Part shown: positions 15,317-60,543 of the stretch, in pieces
How the letters are laid out: each line of letters starts with the position of its first letter
Numbering within the stretch: position 1 is the first letter of the stretch
From: an uncultured Bacilli bacterium
GTDB lineage: Bacteria; Bacillota_I; Bacilli_A; RF39; UBA660
Length of the DNA stretch: 64,000 nt
Assembly: GCA_947626035.1 (NCBI GenBank)
Contig: CANQQR010000002.1
Location: 37,175 to 101,174, forward strand
Direction of reading: 5' to 3'
Program-made: the position numbers and the translations under genes
The notes under the pieces: generated by a model
What the model saw: the letters and a program-made list of their open reading frames with translations, nothing else
What the model was told of the DNA's origin: nothing
Databases searched by the model: none

Positions 15317-17026
15317 TTAGTTTTGTATTAATTTGTTTAGTAAAGTTATTACTTTTATATTTTTTAAGTTTATGATTAGAGATAATACTTTAAAATATAA
15401 TGTTATTAATAATTTGTTAGATTTGCTTTTATATAGTAAAGGTGTTACTATTTCTTTAGTTTTGTTATCTTTTATGTATAGATATGTTTCATATAAATCA
15501 TTTTTGTCTATGTGATTTAGTATTATTCCATATTCCATGTTTAGTTTATTTGTTTCATATACGTCTAGTAGTGTTCTTTCTTCATTTTTATTTATTTTTG
15601 TTATGTACATTTTTAGATATTCTATATATTTGTTTTTATTTGCTATTTCTATGTTTATGTCTTTATGTTTTACTGTGCTTAACATGCAGCTTGTTAGGAT
15701 GTTTATGTTTTCTTCTTCTCCATCTAGTGTTCTTATTTTTGTGTCTTTTAGAAATTCTTTTATCATTTTTTCTCTTGATAATTCATTGTAGCCTTGCATG
15801 TTTTGTTTTTCTTTTTCAGTATATAAGCTACCTAATGTTATTCTTTCAAATGGTTTACCTCCGATTATGTCTGTGTTTCTATAGATGTCTATATCAAAGT
15901 GTTCTAGTCCTCCTGTTGTTTCTTCGTTATCAGTTCTGTCTTTTATTTCTTTTGATTGATAACTATGTATTTGTATGTTTAGAAGTGTTCCTACTTCTAT
16001 GTTTATTCTTTCGTGTCTTACTCTACCGTTTTTTTTGTAAAATTCACGAGTTTTAATCCATCCTCTTCTAGAAAAACCATAGTGAAGTAAGTTTAGTGTG
16101 GCGGTTGTTATTGTTTTGTTATTATTATTTTTAAATGTTAGTAAGCCATAAAAATTTTTTTCTCCCATTTTTTTAAAGGATTTGTGTTTTGTTTTATAGT
16201 AATCTGGTATTTCTTGGTCTTTAAATATGTTTTCTATATCTTTGTATGTACATATTGCAAGTTCGTCTTCTGGTGTGAATGTTTCTGATTTTACGTAACC
16301 TTTTGTTATTTTTTTATTTTTATCTTTTATTAAGTCATTTATTTTTAAGAAGTCACTTAGTAAGTCAATAAAGTGGTAGCCACTGTGGAATAGTTTACCA
16401 TATTGATATTTGTATGGATGGTTTTCTTTTAGCATGTCGTGAGGTAATTCCCAAGCTCCATCACAGTGGAATATATCTATATAAGTTATAGGTATTTGGT
16501 ATTTTTCTACTACTTCTTTTAATATTTTTTTTACGTATATGTACCCGCGATGGTATCTTCTTTGACATAGTACTGTGCAACTGGTGTTACTTTGATTTTC
16601 TAATTTTAGTAAGTTTTGATATTCTTTTTTTACTTTTTTTATCTTTTTTATGTTGTGCATTTTTTTGTTTACTGTTAGTGGTTTATCAGTTAGTACTTTT
16701 ATTTTGTTTTTTAAAGCAAATTCTATGTACATGTTGTGTGCTTTTGGTTCTGTTGATATTATTATGTGTGTTATGTTTTCTTTTTCACATATGAAAGATA
16801 AGTTATTGTAGTCATATTTTTTTAAGTGAAGATTATCTTTGTATTTGTCTTTGATTAAGTATATTTTAGTGTTTTTGAATCCCTCCTCTTTTAAAAAGTT
16901 TTCTATTTCTTCTTTTTTAGAATATAAATCAATTATTAATTTTAGATTGATTTTGTATTTTTTTATGTAATTAATATATATTCTTTTTGCATGTGGTCCT
17001 AGACCGATTAATGCAATATTTGTCAT
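15317..17026 (-). CDS. Large protein with N-terminal Gfo/Idh/MocA-type NAD(P)-binding oxidoreductase domain; C-terminal ~350 aa of unknown function
   Basis: MTNIALIGLGPHAKRIYINY... Rossmann motif (GxGxxA/G) typical of Gfo/Idh/MocA. 569 aa. Its ribosome-binding site (aaggagat) is embedded in the 3' arm of the upstream terminator hairpin. Confidence 0.55.
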   Translation of the reverse strand: MTNIALIGLGPHAKRIYINYIKKYKINLKLIIDLYSKKEEIENFLKEEGFKNTKIYLIKDKYKDNLHLKKYDYNNLSFICEKENITHIIISTEPKAHNMYIEFALKNKIKVLTDKPLTVNKKMHNIKKIKKVKKEYQNLLKLENQSNTSCTVLCQRRYHRGYIYVKKILKEVVEKYQIPITYIDIFHCDGAWELPHDMLKENHPYKYQYGKLFHSGYHFIDLLSDFLKINDLIKDKNKKITKGYVKSETFTPEDELAICTYKDIENIFKDQEIPDYYKTKHKSFKKMGEKNFYGLLTFKNNNNKTITTATLNLLHYGFSRRGWIKTREFYKKNGRVRHERINIEVGTLLNIQIHSYQSKEIKDRTDNEETTGGLEHFDIDIYRNTDIIGGKPFERITLGSLYTEKEKQNMQGYNELSREKMIKEFLKDTKIRTLDGEEENINILTSCMLSTVKHKDINIEIANKNKYIEYLKMYITKINKNEERTLLDVYETNKLNMEYGIILNHIDKNDLYETYLYIKDNKTKEIVTPLLYKSKSNKLLITLYFKVLSLIINLKNIKVITLLNKLIQN

Positions 17027-17054
17027 ATAAAAATCTCCTTTCCGACAAGGAGAT
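17024..17054 (-). terminator. Intrinsic terminator after the LysR gene (8-bp stem atctcctt/aaggagat, loop tccgac, U-tract) that also contains the SD of the downstream gene
   Basis: Read directly at 17033-17054. The U-tract (uuuuaua) runs into the ATG at 17026. Confidence 0.55.
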
Positions 17055-17145
17055 ATTATATTTTAATTATTGTGATTTGTATAATATAAGTTTTTTATGT
17101 CACTATACGTTTACGTATTACTAATCTTGTTGTTTATACGTATAG

Positions 17146-18596: not shown

Positions 18597-21545
18597 CTAT
18601 TTTTTTATTTCTTCTAGTTTTACGCTTACTAGTTTACTTACACCACTTTCTTGCATTGTTACGCCATAGAGTAAGTCTAGGTAACTCATTGTTTCTTTTT
18701 TGTGTGTTATTGTTAAGAATTGTGTTTTACCTCTATAAGAGTTTATGTATTTACCAAATTTTGCTACGTTTTCTTCGTCTAAAGCGCTTTCTACTTCGTC
18801 TAGTACTACAAATGGTACGTTTTTAAGGTTCATTATTGCAAATAGTAAACTTATAGCAGTAAGTGTCATTTCTCCGCCTGATAGTTGAGTTAGTGCACGA
18901 ACTTGTTTTCCTGCTGGGTTTGCTATTATTTCTACACCAGTGTTTAGTAAATCGCTTGGGTCTGTTAGTTCTAGGTGGGCTTCTCCTCCATTAAATAGAC
19001 TTTTAAATACATTACCAAATTCTATGTTTATTTTACTGAATGTTGTGCTGAATTTTTCTTTCATACATTCGTCCATTTCTTGTATTATGTTTAGTAAGTT
19101 TTCTTCACTTTCTTTTAGGTCTGTTTTTTGAGTGTTTAGAAAAGTAAATCTTTTGTTTATTCTATTATATTCTTCTATACTAGATAGGTTTACTTCTCCA
19201 AGAGATTTTATTGTTCTTTTTAGGTCTGTTATTATGTTTCTTGCTTCTGTATCTTCTATTTCTAGAGTATACTCGTTTCTTGCTTTTTCGAATGTCATGT
19301 TATATTCTTCACTTAGTCTATTTAGTAGTGCGTCTAAGTTCATGTTTAGACGTGTTTCTTTTATTTCTAAGTTGTTTACTTTTTCTGTTAGTTCTTTGTT
19401 TTCTTTGTCGTATTTTTTTATTATGTTTTCTAAAGCTTCTATTTCTTCTATTATTTCTTTTCTTGTTTTGTTTAGTGTGTTTACTTTTATGTCTAGGTTG
19501 TTTTTCTTTTCTTCTTCTTTGTAATATTCTTTTGTTATTTGGTCTAGTTCTGTTGTTTTTTCATTATTGTTGTCTAGTGATTTTATTTCTTCTGTTAAGT
19601 TTTCTAGTGTTTGTTTTGTTATGTTAAGTGTTTCTTGTTTTTGGTTTATTGTTTCGTTTTGTTTTACTATTTCTAGGTTTAAGTTGTAGATGTTATTTTT
19701 TAGTATGTCTTGGTTGTAGTTTTTTTCTTTTATTGTTTCGTTTTTGTTGTTTAGTTCTTGTTCTATTATTTTTAAGTTTTTTGTTATTTGGTCTAGTTCT
19801 GTTTTTTCGTTTAGTCTACTGTTATTATCTTTACTTCCGCCTGTTAGTGAACCGCCTACGTTTATTATGTCTCCTTCTAGGGTTACTATTCTGTATCTTG
19901 ATGCTATTTTTTTAGATATTTTTAAGGCTTCGTCTAAGGAAGAAGAAACTACTATGTTACCTAGAGTGTTCATTATTACGTTATAATATTCTTCGTTATA
20001 TGTTACTAGTTTTGAGGCTATATTTACAAATCCAGGAGAAGACTTTATTATTTCTAGAGTACTTGGGTCTATGCTTTTTGGTTTTATTAGGTTAAGTGGG
20101 AAGAATGTTACTCTTCCTTTTTTTGTTCTTTTTAGATATTCAACTGCTTCTTTTGCGTCTCTGTCTGTTTTTGTTACTATGAAATTTAGGCTTGCTCCTA
20201 GTGCGGTGTTGATTGCAGCGCTGTATTCTTCTTTTACTGTTATTAGGTCTTCTATTCTACTTATTATACCGTTTAGACTTGGGTTATTTAGTATGCTTTT
20301 TACTGCAAATGGAATTTTACTCATGTTTTCTATGTTGTATTCTAGTATGTCTTTTTTGCTGTTTAGTTCATATTTTTTTCTTGTTAAATCGTTTAGTTCT
20401 GCTGTTAGTAGGTTTAGTTCTTTTGATAAGTTATTCCATTCTGTAGTTATTGTTTCTAGTTTTTTTTCTAAGGTTTCTTTTTCTTCTAGTAGTGTTTTGT
20501 AGTTTTGGCTTCCTTTTTCATATTCGTTTTTAATTTTTAGTTTTTCTTCTTTTAGGTTAGTTAGTTTGTTTATTATTTCTGTGCTGTTTTTATCGTATTT
20601 GCTTCTTTCTTTTAGTAGTTCTTTTTTGCTGTTTAGTTCGTTTAGTTCTTCTGTTTTTTTCATTAGTTCTAGTTGTACTTCTGTTATTTCGTTATCTAGT
20701 TTTGATCTTTTTACTTTTAGTACTTCTAAATCTACTTTTTCTTTTGTGTCTTTGTTTGTGGTTTCTATTAGTGTGTTACTTAGGGTTTCTTTTTCTTTTT
20801 TTGTTAGTATGTATTCTTCATTTAGGCTAGAGATGTCTTTTGCTAGCAAAGCTACTTCTATGTTTTCTAGTTTTTCTTTGTTTTCTTTGTATATTTTTGC
20901 TTTGTTTGCTTGTTCTTCTAGTGGAGATAGTTGGTCTTCTAGTTCGTTTATTATCATGTCTATTCTTTCCATGTTTTCGTTTGTTTTTTCTAGTTTTTTT
21001 AGTGTTTCTTCTTTTCTTTTTTTGTATTTTAGTACACCTGCTGCATCTTCAAATATTCCTCTTCTGTCTTCTGGTTTTCCGTTTAGTATTTCTATTACTT
21101 TTCCTTGTGGGATTATGCTTAGTGATTCTTTTGAACTAAATGAGTCTAGGAATAGGTCTGTTATGTCTTTTAGTCTTACTTTTTCTTTGTTTATGTAGTA
21201 TTCGTTTTCGTTTGTTTTGTAGACTATTCTTTTTATTTCTATTTCGTTATAGTCTAGTGGAAGACTTTTGTCGGTGTTATCTAGTACTAGGCTAACTGAT
21301 GCAAATCTTGCTGGAGGTCTACTAGCAGAGCCATTAAATATTACGTCTGTCATGTTGTTTGTGCCACGAAGTGATTTTATGGATTGTTCTCCCATTACCC
21401 ATTTTAGTGCGTCTACTATGTTACTTTTTCCACTTCCGTTTGGGCCTACGATGCCGGTTGAGAATTTGTTTAGTTCTAGGTTTACTTTGTCTGCAAAACT
21501 TTTAAATCCATTTATTTTTATTTCTTTTATATACATATTTACCAC
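18597..21545 (-). CDS. smc: Chromosome segregation protein SMC
   Basis: N-terminal Walker A (GPNGSGKSN). Long coiled coils and a hinge are present. The C-terminal ABC signature LSGGE and Walker B (VLDEVESALD) are present. Conserved rnc-smc synteny. 982 aa. Confidence 0.9.
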   Translation of the reverse strand: MVNMYIKEIKINGFKSFADKVNLELNKFSTGIVGPNGSGKSNIVDALKWVMGEQSIKSLRGTNNMTDVIFNGSASRPPARFASVSLVLDNTDKSLPLDYNEIEIKRIVYKTNENEYYINKEKVRLKDITDLFLDSFSSKESLSIIPQGKVIEILNGKPEDRRGIFEDAAGVLKYKKRKEETLKKLEKTNENMERIDMIINELEDQLSPLEEQANKAKIYKENKEKLENIEVALLAKDISSLNEEYILTKKEKETLSNTLIETTNKDTKEKVDLEVLKVKRSKLDNEITEVQLELMKKTEELNELNSKKELLKERSKYDKNSTEIINKLTNLKEEKLKIKNEYEKGSQNYKTLLEEKETLEKKLETITTEWNNLSKELNLLTAELNDLTRKKYELNSKKDILEYNIENMSKIPFAVKSILNNPSLNGIISRIEDLITVKEEYSAAINTALGASLNFIVTKTDRDAKEAVEYLKRTKKGRVTFFPLNLIKPKSIDPSTLEIIKSSPGFVNIASKLVTYNEEYYNVIMNTLGNIVVSSSLDEALKISKKIASRYRIVTLEGDIINVGGSLTGGSKDNNSRLNEKTELDQITKNLKIIEQELNNKNETIKEKNYNQDILKNNIYNLNLEIVKQNETINQKQETLNITKQTLENLTEEIKSLDNNNEKTTELDQITKEYYKEEEKKNNLDIKVNTLNKTRKEIIEEIEALENIIKKYDKENKELTEKVNNLEIKETRLNMNLDALLNRLSEEYNMTFEKARNEYTLEIEDTEARNIITDLKRTIKSLGEVNLSSIEEYNRINKRFTFLNTQKTDLKESEENLLNIIQEMDECMKEKFSTTFSKINIEFGNVFKSLFNGGEAHLELTDPSDLLNTGVEIIANPAGKQVRALTQLSGGEMTLTAISLLFAIMNLKNVPFVVLDEVESALDEENVAKFGKYINSYRGKTQFLTITHKKETMSYLDLLYGVTMQESGVSKLVSVKLEEIKK

Positions 21546-37073: not shown

Positions 37074-37295
37074 CTACTCTTTTGTAACATTCATGAATGC
37101 GTTTATTAGGTCAAATCCTGTTCCTATTTTTTCTACTTTGTCTTTAAATCTCATGCCATATCTTTCTTTCATTTCTTCTATCATTTTTTCTAATGGGTAG
37201 CCTCTGTTTAGTAATTTGTACCAGTGTGAGTTTTCTCTTAGGTATTTGAGTAAGTTTGGGTCGTTATAGATTTTTTCTTTTAAATTATAATTCAT
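37074..37295 (-). CDS. Hypothetical small protein (73 aa)
   Basis: ORF overlapping the upstream ORF by 1 nt (ATGA). No recognised motif. Confidence 0.4.
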   Translation of the reverse strand: MNYNLKEKIYNDPNLLKYLRENSHWYKLLNRGYPLEKMIEEMKERYGMRFKDKVEKIGTGFDLINAFMNVTKE

Positions 37296-37706: not shown

Positions 37707-38393
37707 TTAATTTTCTTTTTGATTATTTTTTGAATATTCATAGAAACTATAGTAACTATCGTAACTTATTATGATGTGGTCTATTAGCTTTATTCCTAGT
37801 ATTTCTCCTAGGTCTCTTAGTTTTAGTGTTACTTCTATGTCTAAGTCACTTGGGGTTGTGTCTCCACTTGGATGATTATGCATTACTGCAATGTATTTTG
37901 CACTTTCTTTTATTGCTTCTTTAAATATTTCTCTTGGGTGTATGTCAACTTTGTCTAGGGTACCTCTAAAGACTTCTTTTTTCTTTATTAGGTTCATTTT
38001 TGTGTCAAATAGTAGTACGAAGAATTTTTCTTGTGTTTCATATTGGAAGTCATTTCTAAAGTATTCAAAGATGCTTTTTGTGTTGTTTAGTTTGATTTTT
38101 TCTTCTTTAGTGTCGTAAATTCTTTTTCCTAATTCAAAGGACGCGAGTAATATACTTGATTTAGATAGTTTTATTCCTTTTATTTTGTTTAGTTTTTCTA
38201 GACTATATGTGCTTAGGTTTTTTAGGTTTTCTGCTTCTTTTAGTATTCTATTTGATAAGTCTATTACGGATTCGTTTTTGTTTCCTGTTCTTAGTAGTAT
38301 TGCTAAAAGTTCACTATCTGATAAGTTTTCTTTTCCATATTTTTTTAATTTTTCTCTTGGTTTTTCGCTTTCGTTTATTTCTTTAAATTTCAT
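37707..38393 (-). CDS. radC: RadC-like JAB-domain protein (UPF0758)
   Basis: JAMM-like motif HNHPSGDTTPS. N-terminal HhH-like region. 228 aa. Confidence 0.85.
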   Translation of the reverse strand: MKFKEINESEKPREKLKKYGKENLSDSELLAILLRTGNKNESVIDLSNRILKEAENLKNLSTYSLEKLNKIKGIKLSKSSILLASFELGKRIYDTKEEKIKLNNTKSIFEYFRNDFQYETQEKFFVLLFDTKMNLIKKKEVFRGTLDKVDIHPREIFKEAIKESAKYIAVMHNHPSGDTTPSDLDIEVTLKLRDLGEILGIKLIDHIIISYDSYYSFYEYSKNNQKEN

Positions 38394-38497
38394 GTTTTCC
38401 TTTCAGTTTAAAAACATGTGTTTAGAACTAATTTTATATATTACATTATTTTTTTATTTTATTCAAGGAGATTTTGGACCAAAATAAAATTTCTAAT

Positions 38498-38580
38498 TTG
38501 ACATATTTTTTAAAATAGTGTACAATTTAGTTATTAGGTTGGTCTTGACCCGTATGGGTCGGGGTCAACCTATTTTTTAT
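38498..38580 (+). ncRNA. Candidate small RNA / orphan promoter-terminator unit: consensus sigma-A promoter TTGACA-17-TACAAT directly followed by a 15-bp stem (with G-U wobbles valid only on the plus strand) and a U-tract
   Basis: The -35 ttgaca is at 38498-38503 and the -10 tacaat at 38521-38526, with an exact 17-nt spacer. The 5' arm ggttggtcttgaccc (38537-38551), loop gtat and 3' arm gggtcggggtcaacc (38556-38570) are followed by tattttttat. This GC-rich hairpin stands out in the AT-rich intergenic region between radC and rpmF, which are both on the minus strand. Flanking ~30-bp direct repeats ttattcaagNgaNtttttggNcaaaataaaa lie at 38459-38490 and 38578-38609. Confidence 0.4.
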
Positions 38581-38595
38581 TCAAGTGAATTTTTG

Positions 38596-38626
38596 GTCAA
38601 AATAAAAGCTATACTGTTTTAGTATA
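38596..38626 (-). terminator. Intrinsic terminator downstream of rpmF (stem tatact/agtata, U-rich tail)
   Basis: Hairpin at 38610-38626. The minus-strand tail is gcuuuuauuuug. Confidence 0.5.
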
Positions 38627-38641
38627 ACTTCTATATTTTAA

Positions 38642-38854
38642 TTACTTAGTTTCTTCTTTGCTTGTTTTAATTACTTCTTTTCCTTTGTAGTGTCCACATT
38701 TAGTACAAGCACGATGAGGTGCTAGAGGAGCACCACAGTTTTTACAAGTTGCTATAGTAGGAGCATCTTTTTTTAGATGAGTTCTACGCGCTCTTTTTGC
38801 TGTTTTACTTGTTCTTCTAAAAGGTACTGCAAATAATTGTAAATCAAATTTCAT
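38642..38854 (-). CDS. rpmF: 50S ribosomal protein L32
   Basis: [18 protein letters not shown]... plus the CxxC...CxxC zinc ribbon ([18 protein letters not shown]). The true start is probably a non-ATG codon a few residues inside the listed ORF (LFAVPF). Confidence 0.85.
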
Positions 38855-39339
38855 TATTTTCCCTCCATATCTAACATTCTACTTAATTCACTAAGTGGTG
38901 AATTATTTTCTTTTTCATTTTCATCTTTTAAGCTCCAACCATTTCCATCAGTTATAAAATCTGCATCTTCTTTTACAACACGAAGTGGAACTTCCAGTAC
39001 AATATTTTCCCATACAATTCCAAAAATATCAAGAGAATTTTGAAAAATAAATTGTTTTTCGCCAATTTCTACGTCTTTACTTATTGTATTTTCTAGTATT
39101 ATGTCTAAAGGATAGTTTACTTCTTCTAGGCTACGAGCGCATAATAATACCATATTTCCAGTGATATTTAAGGTTAAATTGTATACACTGTCCTCTATTC
39201 TTGTTATTTTTCCTTTTGCATGTATATTTTCTAGTCTTTTTATATCAGTATTTTTTAGTGTTTCTTCGTCAAATGTGATGTCTTCGTCTATTATAAGTTC
39301 TGTTTCTACTTCGCTATTTAATTTGCTAATATCAAACAT
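38854..39339 (-). CDS. yceD: YceD/DUF177 family protein (large-subunit rRNA accumulation protein), upstream partner of rpmF
   Basis: 161-aa acidic protein. The yceD-rpmF synteny is conserved. It overlaps rpmF by 1 nt. Confidence 0.7.
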
Positions 39340-53818: not shown

Positions 53819-55486
53819 TTAGAATTTTTCTACTGTTTCTATTCCTAGTATTTTTAATGCACTTGTTGTAACTTTTAAAATACAATTTAGTAGTCTTAAT
53901 CTTGAAGACTTTAAGATATTATCTTTCTCATTTGTTATGTTTATTTCTTCATATAATTTTGAAAATAGTACTGCGATGTTATAAATATATTTTGTTAGGT
54001 GTGATGGCTCGCTAGATTCTAATAATTCATTAATTACAGATGGGTACAAAGATAGTTCTTTAATTATTTGATTTTCTATATCACTATTAAATTTTATTTC
54101 TTCATATGTTTCTTGTTTATTATTTTTTAATATAGAGTTAATTCTTGCAATGCTATAGAGAATGTATATACCTGATTCCCCAGTGAAGCTTGTAGCACTT
54201 TGTAAATTAAAATTAACTATTTTATTTTTTGATACGTTTAACATAGTAAATTTAATACAAGCGTTCATTAGTTTATTTAAATTACTTTCTGATATTTCAC
54301 TATTTCTGTTTTTAAATTCTTTTATTAATGTTTCTTTTACTTTTTTCATGAAGTCTGTTACTAATACTACTGTCCCATTAGATGTAGACATTTTGTCGCC
54401 GTTTAGTAGTACATAGGAATAGCATATTAGCTTAGGTGCTTTGTAGCCTAAAATATCTAATACTGCTGTTATTTCTTTCATGTATACTTCTTGATCTTCT
54501 CCTAAAACGATAAAATTATTTTTTGGGTTTAATTTGAGTTTGTAGATTGTGTATGCAATATCTCTTATTGGGTATAATGATGTTTTATTTGAACGCGTTA
54601 GGATTAGTATTGGTGTTTTTGTTGGAATGTCATAGTCTTTTAAATCAACATATAATCTGTTTAGTTCGTCTTCGTGTAATTTGCCTGTTTTTTCTAATTT
54701 GTTTAAAATGTCTTCTAGGTAGTTATTGTAAACAAAGTCTGATTCATGAGTAAATACATCAAAATGAATGTTTAGTTCGTTTAATATTTTTAATTGTCCA
54801 TCAACACATTTATCAGTTATTTTTTTAAATTTATTAATCATTTCTGTGTTACCGTTTTCTACTTCTTTTAGGTAATCAAATGCTTTTTGATTTAGTTGTT
54901 CATTAGTGTCTGCTTCTTTGCTAATTTTTACATATGTGTCTAGGACTTCAGAAAATTCATCACTTTTTAATCCATATTTTTCTATGCCAATTACAAGTAA
55001 TGCTATTTTTTTGCCAATATCATTTATAAAATAATGTCTTGTTACATCATACCCAACAAATGCATATAAATTACTCATAAAATCTCCTATTAGACTGTTT
55101 CTACATCTTCCAATGTGAGGTTCAGCATTAGGATTTATTGAGGTATGTTCAATTAGTAATGATTCCCCTTTACCTTGATTATTTGATCCATAGTTTTCAT
55201 TTCTTTCTATTTCTTTGATTATGTTAGGACTATAATTTTGATAATTTATGTAGAAATTTATATAAGGGCCTACTACTTTTATATTTGAAAAATTATTTTT
55301 ATCGTCTATGAATTTTTCTTTAATTAAGTTAGCAATTTCATTTGGATTTTGATATTTTTCATTTCTTAGGTTAGCACATTGTATGCTATAGTCTCCCATT
55401 TCATGTTTTGGTGGTATTTCAATTTTAATTTTTGATTCTTCAATATTAATAATTTCAAGTATTTTTTTAGTTATATATTTTTTCAT
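53819..55486 (-). CDS. argS: Arginine--tRNA ligase
   Basis: Class I HIGH motif (PNAEPHIGRCRNSLIGD), KMSKS-like DKMSTSNG and a C-terminal DALR anticodon-binding domain. 555 aa. Confidence 0.9.
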   Translation of the reverse strand: MKKYITKKILEIINIEESKIKIEIPPKHEMGDYSIQCANLRNEKYQNPNEIANLIKEKFIDDKNNFSNIKVVGPYINFYINYQNYSPNIIKEIERNENYGSNNQGKGESLLIEHTSINPNAEPHIGRCRNSLIGDFMSNLYAFVGYDVTRHYFINDIGKKIALLVIGIEKYGLKSDEFSEVLDTYVKISKEADTNEQLNQKAFDYLKEVENGNTEMINKFKKITDKCVDGQLKILNELNIHFDVFTHESDFVYNNYLEDILNKLEKTGKLHEDELNRLYVDLKDYDIPTKTPILILTRSNKTSLYPIRDIAYTIYKLKLNPKNNFIVLGEDQEVYMKEITAVLDILGYKAPKLICYSYVLLNGDKMSTSNGTVVLVTDFMKKVKETLIKEFKNRNSEISESNLNKLMNACIKFTMLNVSKNKIVNFNLQSATSFTGESGIYILYSIARINSILKNNKQETYEEIKFNSDIENQIIKELSLYPSVINELLESSEPSHLTKYIYNIAVLFSKLYEEINITNEKDNILKSSRLRLLNCILKVTTSALKILGIETVEKF

Positions 55487-55489
55487 ATT

Positions 55490-55720
55490 CTTCTCCTTAA
55501 AAAGAAAATTCTATAAAATAAGGACGATTTACTCGTGGTACCACCTTAATTCATAGAATTTCTATCTCTTATTCTTTAACGCAGATATACGTATTTGACT
55601 CTAAAGATGCGTTCGTTTAACATTGTCATTTCCTTTCACTAACCGGAAATATCACTAAGACAAGAGGTTAAATTACTATTTCTTTTTCTTTGTCATTTAA
55701 TTTATGTTTTGATTATATCA
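55490..55720 (-). promoter_or_regulatory. T-box riboswitch leader of argS with extended -10 promoter (TGATATAAT, 55712-55720)
   Basis: The conserved T-box sequence on the minus strand, aattaaggtggtaccacgag (plus 55532-55552), matches AAnnnGGGTGGTACCGCG. AGAGA-like stem-I elements are present. No clear U-tract terminator follows. Instead, a hairpin uccuua...uaagga sequesters the argS SD (aaggaga). Confidence 0.6.
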
Positions 55721-59744: not shown

Positions 59745-59830
59745 TTGGTGCAGGCGAAGGGACTTGAACCCCCATGGATTGCTCCGCTAGATCCTAAGTC
59801 TAGTGCGTCTGCCAATTTCGCCACGCCTGC
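59745..59830 (-). tRNA. tRNA-Leu (anticodon UAG), long variable arm, CCA encoded
   Basis: Reverse complement: GCAGGCGTGGCGAAATTGGCAGACGCACTAGACTTAGGATCTAGCGGAGCAATCCATGGGGGTTCAAGTCCCTTCGCCTGCACCA. It has a cloverleaf with anticodon loop cuUAGga and T-loop GGTTCAAGTCC. Confidence 0.9.
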
Positions 59831-59840
59831 AAACTTTAGT

Positions 59841-59917
59841 GGTGGACCTTGCAGGACTCGAACCTGCGACCGCCCGGTTATGAGCCGGATGCTCTAACCA
59901 ACTGAGCTAAAGGTCCA
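59841..59917 (-). tRNA. tRNA with CAU anticodon (elongator Met or lysidine-modified Ile2; not initiator, since position 1 pairs with position 72)
   Basis: Reverse complement: GGACCTTTAGCTCAGTTGGTTAGAGCATCCGGCTCATAACCGGGCGGTCGCAGGTTCGAGTCCTGCAAGGTCCACCA. The acceptor stem is perfect and the anticodon loop is CUCAUAA. Confidence 0.85.
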
Positions 59918-60012: not shown

Positions 60013-60453
60013 CTACTTATCTTCTAATCTTGATAATAAATCTATTTTAAACATTTCTTTTTGAGCATTTGCTTTGGAAATCATTATTCCTTTATAAGCT
60101 GTTAATTCTGATTTATGTCCATCCATTAAAATTCCCTTAGGCTCAAGTGTATTTAACATTACTACATTTTGTTTTTTATAAACTGTGTAATTTAGTTTTA
60201 CTTTACCATAAACTTTTACAAATAGATTATCTGTAGGAAGTTGTAAATCATATGTTTCTGTTTGTTCATGTTTGTTTATTCCTACTAATTCTCCTAAAAA
60301 TTCTCCTTTTCTTAAACTTGGATAAAAATCAAACATTAATTTTTTATAAGCCATCATGTTATATTTTTTTAAACTTCTTTCTAGTTTCTTAAAGTTATTT
60401 TCATCTAAGTAATCTAATAAATATCTTCCTTTCATAATCAACCTTACCCCCAT
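60013..60453 (-). CDS. Hypothetical protein (146 aa); possible start at internal MKGRYLL
   Basis: Clean ORF between the tRNAs and thrS. A faint RelE/ParE-like C-terminal pattern is not convincing. No partner gene is present. Confidence 0.35.
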   Translation of the reverse strand: MGVRLIMKGRYLLDYLDENNFKKLERSLKKYNMMAYKKLMFDFYPSLRKGEFLGELVGINKHEQTETYDLQLPTDNLFVKVYGKVKLNYTVYKKQNVVMLNTLEPKGILMDGHKSELTAYKGIMISKANAQKEMFKIDLLSRLEDK

Positions 60454-60543
60454 TAACTGTTTAAATTATAGCATATTTTGTACATTTTGTCAATAAAATG
60501 TAATTATAAAAGTACATTTTTGATTTTTAGTTAGAAAAAAGAC

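Follow-up and report, generated by a model that had tools for sequence, protein, structure and literature searches.

A short promoter-terminator unit was detected in a 64,000-nucleotide stretch of DNA (the window; positions 37,175 to 101,174 of contig CANQQR010000002.1, assembly GCA_947626035.1) from an uncultured Bacilli bacterium. The unit lies inside the 248-bp intergenic spacer between radC and rpmF, two minus-strand genes, and is read from the plus strand, where a near-consensus promoter runs into a GC-rich hairpin followed by a run of T residues. The same architecture was found at the same locus of a sister species, with much of the promoter sequence retained and a hairpin of different sequence. 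We favor, at a probability of roughly 0.4, the reading that this is an expressed, self-terminated antisense unit of ~46 nt which would tune or uncouple radC locally, in cis. The unit is probably a genuine, if modest, device of local control, as opposed to a regulatory RNA of the classic type or a mobile element.

Anatomy of the promoter-terminator unit

The promoter (38498-38526, plus strand) is of the sigma-A/sigma-70 type, with near-consensus hexamers separated by a spacing within the 16- to 18-nt range of this class, and consists of a −35 box of TTGACA (38498-38503), a 17-nt spacer and a −10 box of TACAAT (38521-38526). This site was the top match in a 12-kb consensus scan. A first-pass annotation, made from the letters of the window, had described the promoter as perfect; the sequence and position were correct, but the match to the consensus is 11/12, with a −10 box that agrees at five of six positions.

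The terminator hairpin occupies positions 38535 to 38572 of the plus strand, with arms at 38535-38551 and 38556-38572 enclosing a 4-nt GTAT loop. The stem contains 17 pairs, among them eight G-C and four G-U pairs, and reaches this length, rather than the 15 bp originally given, once two outer A-U pairs are included. The loop and T tail (TTTTTT, 38573-38578) were present as annotated, and the complete run of TTTTTTA (38573-38579, plus strand) has the form of an intrinsic-terminator U-tract and overlaps the start of the right-hand member of a pair of direct repeats that flank the unit. A GC-rich stem-loop followed by a U-tract, the arrangement of an intrinsic (Rho-independent) terminator, is found on the plus strand only. 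Folding of the hairpin RNA gave −25.0 kcal/mol for the plus strand (z = −6.7) versus −16.9 kcal/mol for the minus strand (z = −5.6), on which the four G-U pairs turn into A-C mismatches and no U-tract follows the hairpin; the strand specificity that had been ascribed to four wobble pairs was, therefore, confirmed. The claim that G+C content is well above that of the surroundings also held, as the hairpin has 21 G or C residues in 38 nt (~55%) versus 22 to 35% in 2-kb bins of the window, the DNA of this host being AT rich (~28% GC).

The stem starts 8 nt past the −10 hexamer, at approximately +3 of the predicted transcript; the first-pass annotation had wrongly counted a similar distance from the predicted start. 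Spacing from the −10 box places the putative transcript start at A38533. The predicted transcript (~46 nt, ~38533-38579, plus strand) would comprise a 2-nt 5′ overhang, the 17-bp stem-loop and the U tail and would be almost purely hairpin and tail; it folds as one hairpin of −25.0 kcal/mol (z = −6.0). With a promoter and a terminator of its own that lie antisense to the neighboring genes, the unit is laid out as a cis-encoded antisense RNA. It points toward rpmF, no same-strand gene lies downstream of it, and on the gene strand it is radC that is located downstream of the unit.

Standing of the unit against chance

Promoter matches of at least 11/12 were observed eight times in the window, compared to an expectation of 4.9 ± 2.3 derived from Markov shuffles, and the promoter match alone is within chance for this AT-rich DNA. 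A 12-kb local scan detected no overall excess of promoter-like or terminator-like sites. Of all the sites in the 64 kb, on either strand, where a hairpin precedes a T-run, this hairpin ranked first, at −24.2 kcal/mol versus −15.3 kcal/mol for the next site, and the ordinary gene terminators of the window fall at about −10 to −15 kcal/mol. The non-random part of the unit is the location of a promoter directly upstream of the strongest terminator-like hairpin of the window, with both parts being kept in a second species.

A paired-site scan, requiring a promoter of at least 10/12 and a terminator within 60 nt, produced one other intergenic case (17083-17033, minus strand), and the remaining match, at 20023, was inside a long minus-strand open reading frame (ORF). 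In the intergenic case, a promoter-like TATACA-17-TATAAT abuts a hairpin of ATCTCCTT-GTCGGA-AAGGAGAT, followed by TTTTTAT, and the 3′ arm of this hairpin (element at 17033-17083, minus strand) is the Shine-Dalgarno sequence of an ORF starting at 17026. This second element could be involved in translational or attenuation control.

Counterpart in a sister species

The closest distinct RadC protein (69% identical) was that of L002 (assembly GCA_947585885.1), which was sister to the window organism in a neighbor-joining tree of 60 RadC homologues. The spacer of a metagenome contig from the European Nucleotide Archive (L001) was identical to that of the window. In L002, the promoter-hairpin unit again sits immediately upstream of the radC promoter and is antisense to the genes. 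The L002 promoter also matches the consensus at 11/12 positions and has a −35 box of TTGACA (2395-2390), 17 nt of spacer and a −10 box of TATATT (2372-2367) preceded by TGT, while the hairpin (2355-2315) has 17 bp and a 7-nt loop and is followed by a run of seven T residues. The fold of this hairpin was −24.7 kcal/mol for the antisense strand versus −14.7 kcal/mol for the gene strand (z = −4.3).

Identity between the window and L002 was 77% for the radC 5′ untranslated region, 79% for the radC promoter and 76% for the plus-strand promoter through its predicted start; by this measure, conservation of the plus-strand promoter matches that of known functional DNA. Identity fell to 42% between the two −35 boxes, with a 5-nt indel, and to 23% for the hairpins, a chance level at which the stem nevertheless still pairs; MAFFT could not align the two stems in register. 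The −10 boxes depart from the consensus at different positions (TACAAT versus TATATT), and the 17-nt spacer was retained despite an indel. The loops also differ, with 4 nt (GUAU) in the window and 7 nt (AAUUGCA) in L002, as do the 5′ leaders. Four stem positions in the window and two in L002 remain paired by other than Watson-Crick pairing, and all six are G-U when read on the antisense strand, a bias of ~1 in 64 by arithmetic that is modest evidence and agrees with the one-sided T-run. As the promoter was 76% kept and the stem had turned over with its length, stability and tail being preserved, this comparison argues that selection holds the promoter and the plus-strand RNA hairpin and not the transcribed sequence.

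The first-pass annotation had proposed that the unit was a short stable small RNA (sRNA), a transcriptional insulator, or a small mobile element in the form of a remnant or attachment site. The presence in L002 of the promoter, the 17-nt spacing, the hairpin and the T-run upheld the promoter-plus-terminator unit as real, and of the proposed roles that of an insulator, or another role in cis, would fit best. No conserved single-stranded segment usable as a seed was found between the window and L002 in the leader, loop or stem. The stable sRNA, when read as a classical trans-acting base-pairing sRNA, was not sustained, as such an sRNA is unlikely with no conserved seed.

Conservation of the promoter also bears on whether anything other than the terminator is selected. 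It is unlikely that a strong promoter arose by chance or came with the insertion and that selection acts only on the terminator, which would spare rpmF and yceD, with the RNA and its synthesis being functionless. Promoters of equal quality do arise by chance in this DNA (8 observed, 4.9 expected), spurious promoters are considered the source of most antisense RNAs in AT-rich bacteria (PMC4783119), the unit is an insertion restricted to two species, and an over-strong terminator would be expected beside essential genes. A single −10 mutation would be a cheaper cure, yet both species have an 11/12 promoter with a 17-nt spacer, kept by way of different −10 substitutions and despite indels. Retention of the promoter looks selected because the 11/12 match was kept while neighboring, unconstrained DNA fell to between 23% and 42% identity.

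Other aspects of the comparison would be in keeping with an abundant, very stable RNA product whose shape is what functions in trans, for instance as a ligand or decoy of a protein recognizing double-stranded RNA or U-tailed 3′ hairpins. Both species keep a stem of 16 to 17 bp, a stability of approximately −25 kcal/mol and a U tail, which is beyond the usual terminators of this genome; the promoter is strong, and the shape is constant where the sequence varies. This explanation is distinctly unlikely, as no partner protein was identified, no Rfam family matched, the size and sequence of the loop and the 5′ leader differ between the species, and a single-copy unit limited to two species would be odd for a general decoy. 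Equally doubtful is the possibility that the unit is a "terminator-only" RNA gene, serving as a decoy for a hairpin- or 3′-end-binding protein or nuclease, or a purpose-built polymerase "bumper" that uncouples radC from a ribosomal-protein operon.

Flanking repeats, radC promoter and rpmF terminator

The direct repeats, reported as 30 bp in the first-pass annotation, were recovered as 33-nt copies at 38457-38489 and 38575-38607 that are 82% identical at a spacing of 118, with none expected by chance. The left repeat holds the −35 box of the inferred radC promoter (TTGAAT, minus strand, 38466-38461) and the palindrome ATTTTGGACCAAAAT (38471-38485), and the right repeat is a duplicated copy of the target in which AAAATAAAA supplies, for the minus strand, the U-tract of the rpmF terminator. 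With the radC −35 box in the left copy and this U-tract in the right copy, the repeats do not belong to an RNA gene.

The inferred radC promoter (38438-38466, minus strand) has a −35 box of TTGAAT (38466-38461), a 17-nt spacer and a −10 box of TAATAT (38443-38438). This 8/12 match is under the cut-off of the promoter scan and was read from the sequence; TTGAAT-17-TAATAT is also found in L002 and in the outgroup L071. The plus-strand promoter is upstream of, and divergent from, the inferred radC promoter, the two −35 boxes being 31 bp apart. Between these boxes, ATTTTGGACCAAAAT forms a perfect 15-bp palindrome (38471-38485), of which an imperfect copy occurs in the right repeat (38590-38603). 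This palindrome looks like an operator but is not conserved, the L002 sequence being TTTTGTAGAAAA, and an operator was rejected.

The rpmF terminator (38600-38632, minus strand) has an AT-rich stem with a core of AGTTATACT/AGTATAGCT (38609-38629), followed by TTTTATTTT, and the surrounding segment (38596-38645, minus strand) folds at −13.7 kcal/mol (z = −4.7). The rpmF gene itself (38642-38854, minus strand) encodes ribosomal protein L32 (Pfam PF01783, 4e-22) and is the last gene of the yceD-rpmF operon, in which yceD occupies 38854-39339 (PF02620, 8e-11). The radC product (37707-38393, minus strand) has a JAB domain and a UPF0758 N-terminal domain (PF04002, 8e-42; PF20582, 6e-26). The coordinates and Pfam matches agree with the original assignment of both flanking genes to the minus strand.

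Insertion history

The gene order in relatives is yceD-rpmF-orf14x-radC-ylbD-ylbE-pilin-dnaE. The gene termed orf14x encodes 141 to 149 amino acids and was present between rpmF and radC in 9 of the 10 relative lineages retrieved (the L003 contig is cut earlier and L070 has only 58 bp upstream of radC), for example at 1886-2311 in L002, 2002-2451 in L004, 2021-2455 in L006 and 276-713 in L071. A hydrophobic stretch is present at the N terminus of the protein, which has no solid Pfam match, one member giving a weak match to SPOR (E = 0.019). At the corresponding site of the window (38575-38641), orf14x is missing, and tblastn detected no homologue of it across the 64 kb.

The unit was not found in the eight relatives with a readable spacer before radC (L004, L006, L009, L010, L012, L068, L069 and the nearest outgroup, L071); the contigs of L003 and L070 end just upstream of radC. 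Conservation of the element between radC and rpmF, which the first-pass annotation had put forward as a check, thus extended to L002 but not to these eight. The spacer before radC is 45 to 64 bp in the relatives without the unit, except for 148 bp in L010. In L071, there is a single TTGAAT, which contains the TGA stop codon of orf145 and lies 17 nt upstream of TAATAT. In both carriers, TTGAAT occurs twice, flanking the unit and inside the direct repeats, which in L002 are 21 nt in length and 90% identical (TTGAATTAAAAAAAGTACTAT/TTGAATTAAAAAGAATACTAT, spacing 129). As TTGAAT is single in L071 but doubled within the repeats of both carriers, the alignments support a lineage-specific insertion with target duplication. 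A flanking target-site duplication, as in a miniature inverted-repeat transposable element or other small mobile element, is present in the window and L002, with L071 having the empty site. The insertion aspect of the original mobile-element idea was, to this extent, borne out.

In the simplest history, a single insertion of about 85 to 115 bp would have occurred in the common ancestor of the window organism and L002, at the point where the stop codon of orf14x overlaps the −35 box of radC. Duplication of the target would have spared the radC promoter as well as the end of orf14x, and later loss of orf14x from the window lineage would have left the right repeat beside the rpmF terminator. The right repeat is, on this history, probably a relic of the 3′ end of the lost orf14x.

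That the unit is a relic or miniature form of a mobile element, or a former attachment site, with the repeats as target-site duplications and the promoter and hairpin as leftovers, is very unlikely. Direct repeats do surround the unit in both species (33 nt, 82%; 21 nt, 90%), and the relatives do show an empty site with a single TTGAAT. The unit has no terminal inverted repeats, however, as inverted repeats are limited to the hairpin and the palindromes inside each direct repeat. Further copies, whose existence the first-pass annotation had left to a genome-wide search, were sought in the window and in phage, plasmid and viral collections, and none were found: no second copy of the hairpin, flanking repeat or promoter module was detected in the 64 kb with up to three mismatches allowed, blastn gave no meaningful match to the phage and plasmid collections, and the degenerate hairpin pattern was absent from viral contigs. 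Assignment to a mobile-element family was not supported by these results. Typical transposon target duplications are much shorter than 21 to 33 bp, the lengths of the duplications seen here, and a leftover would not be expected to hold promoter quality and stem pairing during sequence turnover. As a source for the insert, nothing similar was detected in the adjacent radC leader or in the phage, plasmid and viral collections. A tandem duplication of the radC −10 box and 5′ untranslated region was tried as an origin and rejected, as the local alignment was no better than with shuffles for either species. The anatomy, the conservation and the insertion history of the unit can all be read directly from these sequences.

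Read-through and the gene strand

In L002, there is no terminator of conviction after rpmF, with only a hairpin of −3.4 kcal/mol being detected, and the only gene-strand hairpin following orf141 (the orf14x of this species) is one without a U-tract. As the former hairpin is weak and the latter lacks a U-tract, read-through from rpmF and orf14x, and hence overlap of the unit by a sense transcript, is plausible in L002. An inverted repeat with 35-nt arms (77% complementary) is present at 1841-1942 of L002, bracketing the ribosome-binding site and start codon of orf141, and has a perfect 14-bp core of AAGTTATACTTATA/TATAAGTATAACTT. The AGTTATACT/AGTATAGCT stem of the rpmF terminator in the window looks like a collapsed version of this inverted repeat.

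The position of the hairpin raises the question of whether it serves the gene strand, as a factor-assisted terminator, processing site or 3′-end stabilizer for rpmF or orf14x, with the promoter being incidental. The minus-strand RNA does still fold (−16.9 and −14.7 kcal/mol, z = −5.6 and −4.3, in the window and L002), and the hairpin coincides with the end of the upstream operon, following the stop codon of orf141 directly in L002. Every wobble pair favors the plus strand, though, and the T-run is on the plus side only in both species; furthermore, rpmF has a separate terminator in the window, and conservation of the promoter would be left unexplained. A gene-strand function was, hence, rated as the least likely of the alternatives.

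In one of the relatives without the unit, L010, the spacer after rpmF (345-466) contains an antisense promoter-like TTGCCA-18-TATAAT (11/12) aimed at the rpmF terminator. Next to the −35 box of this site is a 16-bp palindrome, GTACCATAGATGGTAC, with half-sites that repeat the ATGGTA/TACCAT of the terminator stem. Here, an antisense promoter directed at the end of rpmF may have arisen independently.

Other identities and parallels

Searches of Rfam returned nothing at the gathering threshold for the site (the best sub-threshold score was 20.5 bits versus 100) and nothing at an E value of ≤1 for L002. A coding reading was rejected: the only plus-strand ORF (34 amino acids, GTG start) starts within the spacer/−10 region of the promoter and extends across the terminator. 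The predicted transcript contains no ORF, and L002 has no conserved antisense ORF. A type I toxin-antitoxin system was also rejected, there being no minus-strand ORF of at least 20 amino acids in 38394-38641 and no toxin-like peptide.

A scan of genome contigs with a single RadC protein recovered only one locus, a 41%-identical one from Bacillus. The 23-base pattern of the promoter pair had five chance matches in metagenome contigs, all inside coding DNA. On viral contigs, the promoter pattern had 50 matches, among which L014, L034 and L053 were candidate parallels; none was an orphan unit. In these three phage contigs (L014, 11959-11985; L034, 7650-7676; L053, 1284-1309; all minus strand), a promoter-like AATTTGACA..ATAGTGT runs into a terminator hairpin, which in L034 and L053 is the ordinary terminator of a same-strand gene ending there and in L014 is located at the end of a convergent gene.

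Elsewhere in the window, a T-box leader was detected at 55517-55699 (minus strand; 93.3 bits, slightly over the gathering score) upstream of an ORF at 53819-55486, and a tRNA-Met/tRNA-Leu pair at 59746-59916 (minus strand). The sole perfect (12/12) promoter of the window, TTGACA-17-TATAAT, is found at 60465-60493 (minus strand), just upstream of an ORF at 60013-60453.

Discussion

Under the favored reading, a housekeeping-type promoter would fire on the plus strand, and after ~45 nt the polymerase would meet the 17-bp GC-rich hairpin and U-tract, stop and release a hairpin RNA of ~46 nt. We infer this plus-strand transcription. The unit, which faces the yceD-rpmF(-orf14x) operon head-on and is placed back-to-back to a weak radC promoter, would exert its effect by being transcribed or by polymerase occupancy or interference. 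Expression of radC might thereby be tuned, or be uncoupled from read-through of the ribosomal-protein operon or from its own promoter, and the over-strong terminator would prevent antisense transcription from reaching rpmF and yceD. The features retained under selection would be promoter quality, a 17-nt spacing, a stability of approximately −25 kcal/mol, G-U pairing on the antisense strand only and the T-run. Action in cis is suggested because only the architecture and not the transcribed sequence is conserved, and is favored over action in trans because there is no conserved single-stranded seed.

A number of points weigh against this reading. Promoters of at least 11/12 arise by chance ~5 times per 64 kb, and antisense transcripts in AT-rich bacteria are mostly considered noise (PMC4783119). 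The unit is known from two carrier species and one identical metagenome contig, so that the comparison rests on one pair. In the window, rpmF has a reasonable terminator of its own (−13.7 kcal/mol), making an additional barrier to read-through partly redundant, and a plain gene-strand terminator would be a simpler means of stopping read-through. The 45-nt transcribed stretch would be a small target for polymerase collision. Finally, a near-perfect 17-bp stem with a 4-nt loop would be a poor antisense pairing partner, which weakens the RNA-RNA version of a cis mechanism.

The phage lambda OOP RNA is a constitutive, self-terminated RNA of 77 nt with its own promoter that is directed against the 3′ end of a neighboring gene and consists mostly of a terminator hairpin. 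OOP overlaps the end of the cII coding sequence and acts by pairing and RNase III cleavage. The predicted RNA of the window, in contrast, overlaps intergenic DNA only, would be unlikely to pair due to its 4-nt loop and 17-bp stem, and is not in a phage.

A precedent in the literature is ashelD of Bacillus subtilis, an antisense RNA of ~90 nt ending at an intrinsic terminator, whose promoter represses the helD promoter by interference, such that destruction of the antisense −10 box derepresses the sense promoter (PMC12802891). The two systems share a strong antisense promoter, a short RNA, an intrinsic terminator and a Firmicutes host. The helD antisense promoter lies downstream, in the 5′ untranslated region, and is convergent with the sense promoter, whereas the promoter described here is upstream of and divergent from the radC promoter and is convergent only with the distant promoter of the rpmF operon; no link to rifampicin is implied. 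A convergent promoter switch of the helD type (as defined in PMC12802891) was rejected on the basis of this geometry.

In Streptomyces coelicolor, scr4677 is an antisense sRNA located between co-oriented operon genes that influences the abundance of the operon transcript (PMC3896431). The unit is similar in its predicted small antisense RNA in the spacer of two co-oriented genes, but scr4677 is near the translation start of the downstream gene and is reported to be conserved among Streptomyces, while the window unit ends upstream of the radC promoter and is conserved in shape only. GraL, from the greA leader of Escherichia coli, comprises RNAs of 40 to 60 nt made from strong promoters that run into a nearby terminator, with a third reading into greA (PMC2836576). 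A strong promoter followed by a terminator a few tens of nucleotides on is common to both, but GraL is a sense leader, whereas the unit is not followed by any same-strand gene. The unit also resembles spurious antisense transcripts (PMC4783119) in its AT-rich genome, its promoter on the non-coding strand and its lack of coding potential; it differs from noise promoters in being retained between species and in being paired with a dedicated, unusually strong and strand-specific terminator.

Taken on its sequence features, the unit is a credible lineage-restricted, self-terminated antisense mini-gene, of a familiar kind and not a new type of system. Its scope is narrow, as it involves two uncultured species with no known phenotype and antisense units of this general type are already familiar. 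If transcribed, the unit would be a clean, natural and minimal cassette of promoter and terminator, maintained for how it is built rather than for its sequence, and could provide a compact part for synthetic biology in low-GC Firmicutes, combining a strong promoter with a highly efficient unidirectional terminator. It would also be an instance, again if transcribed, of a small insertion adding local transcriptional control beside a ribosomal-protein operon in a reduced, AT-rich genome.

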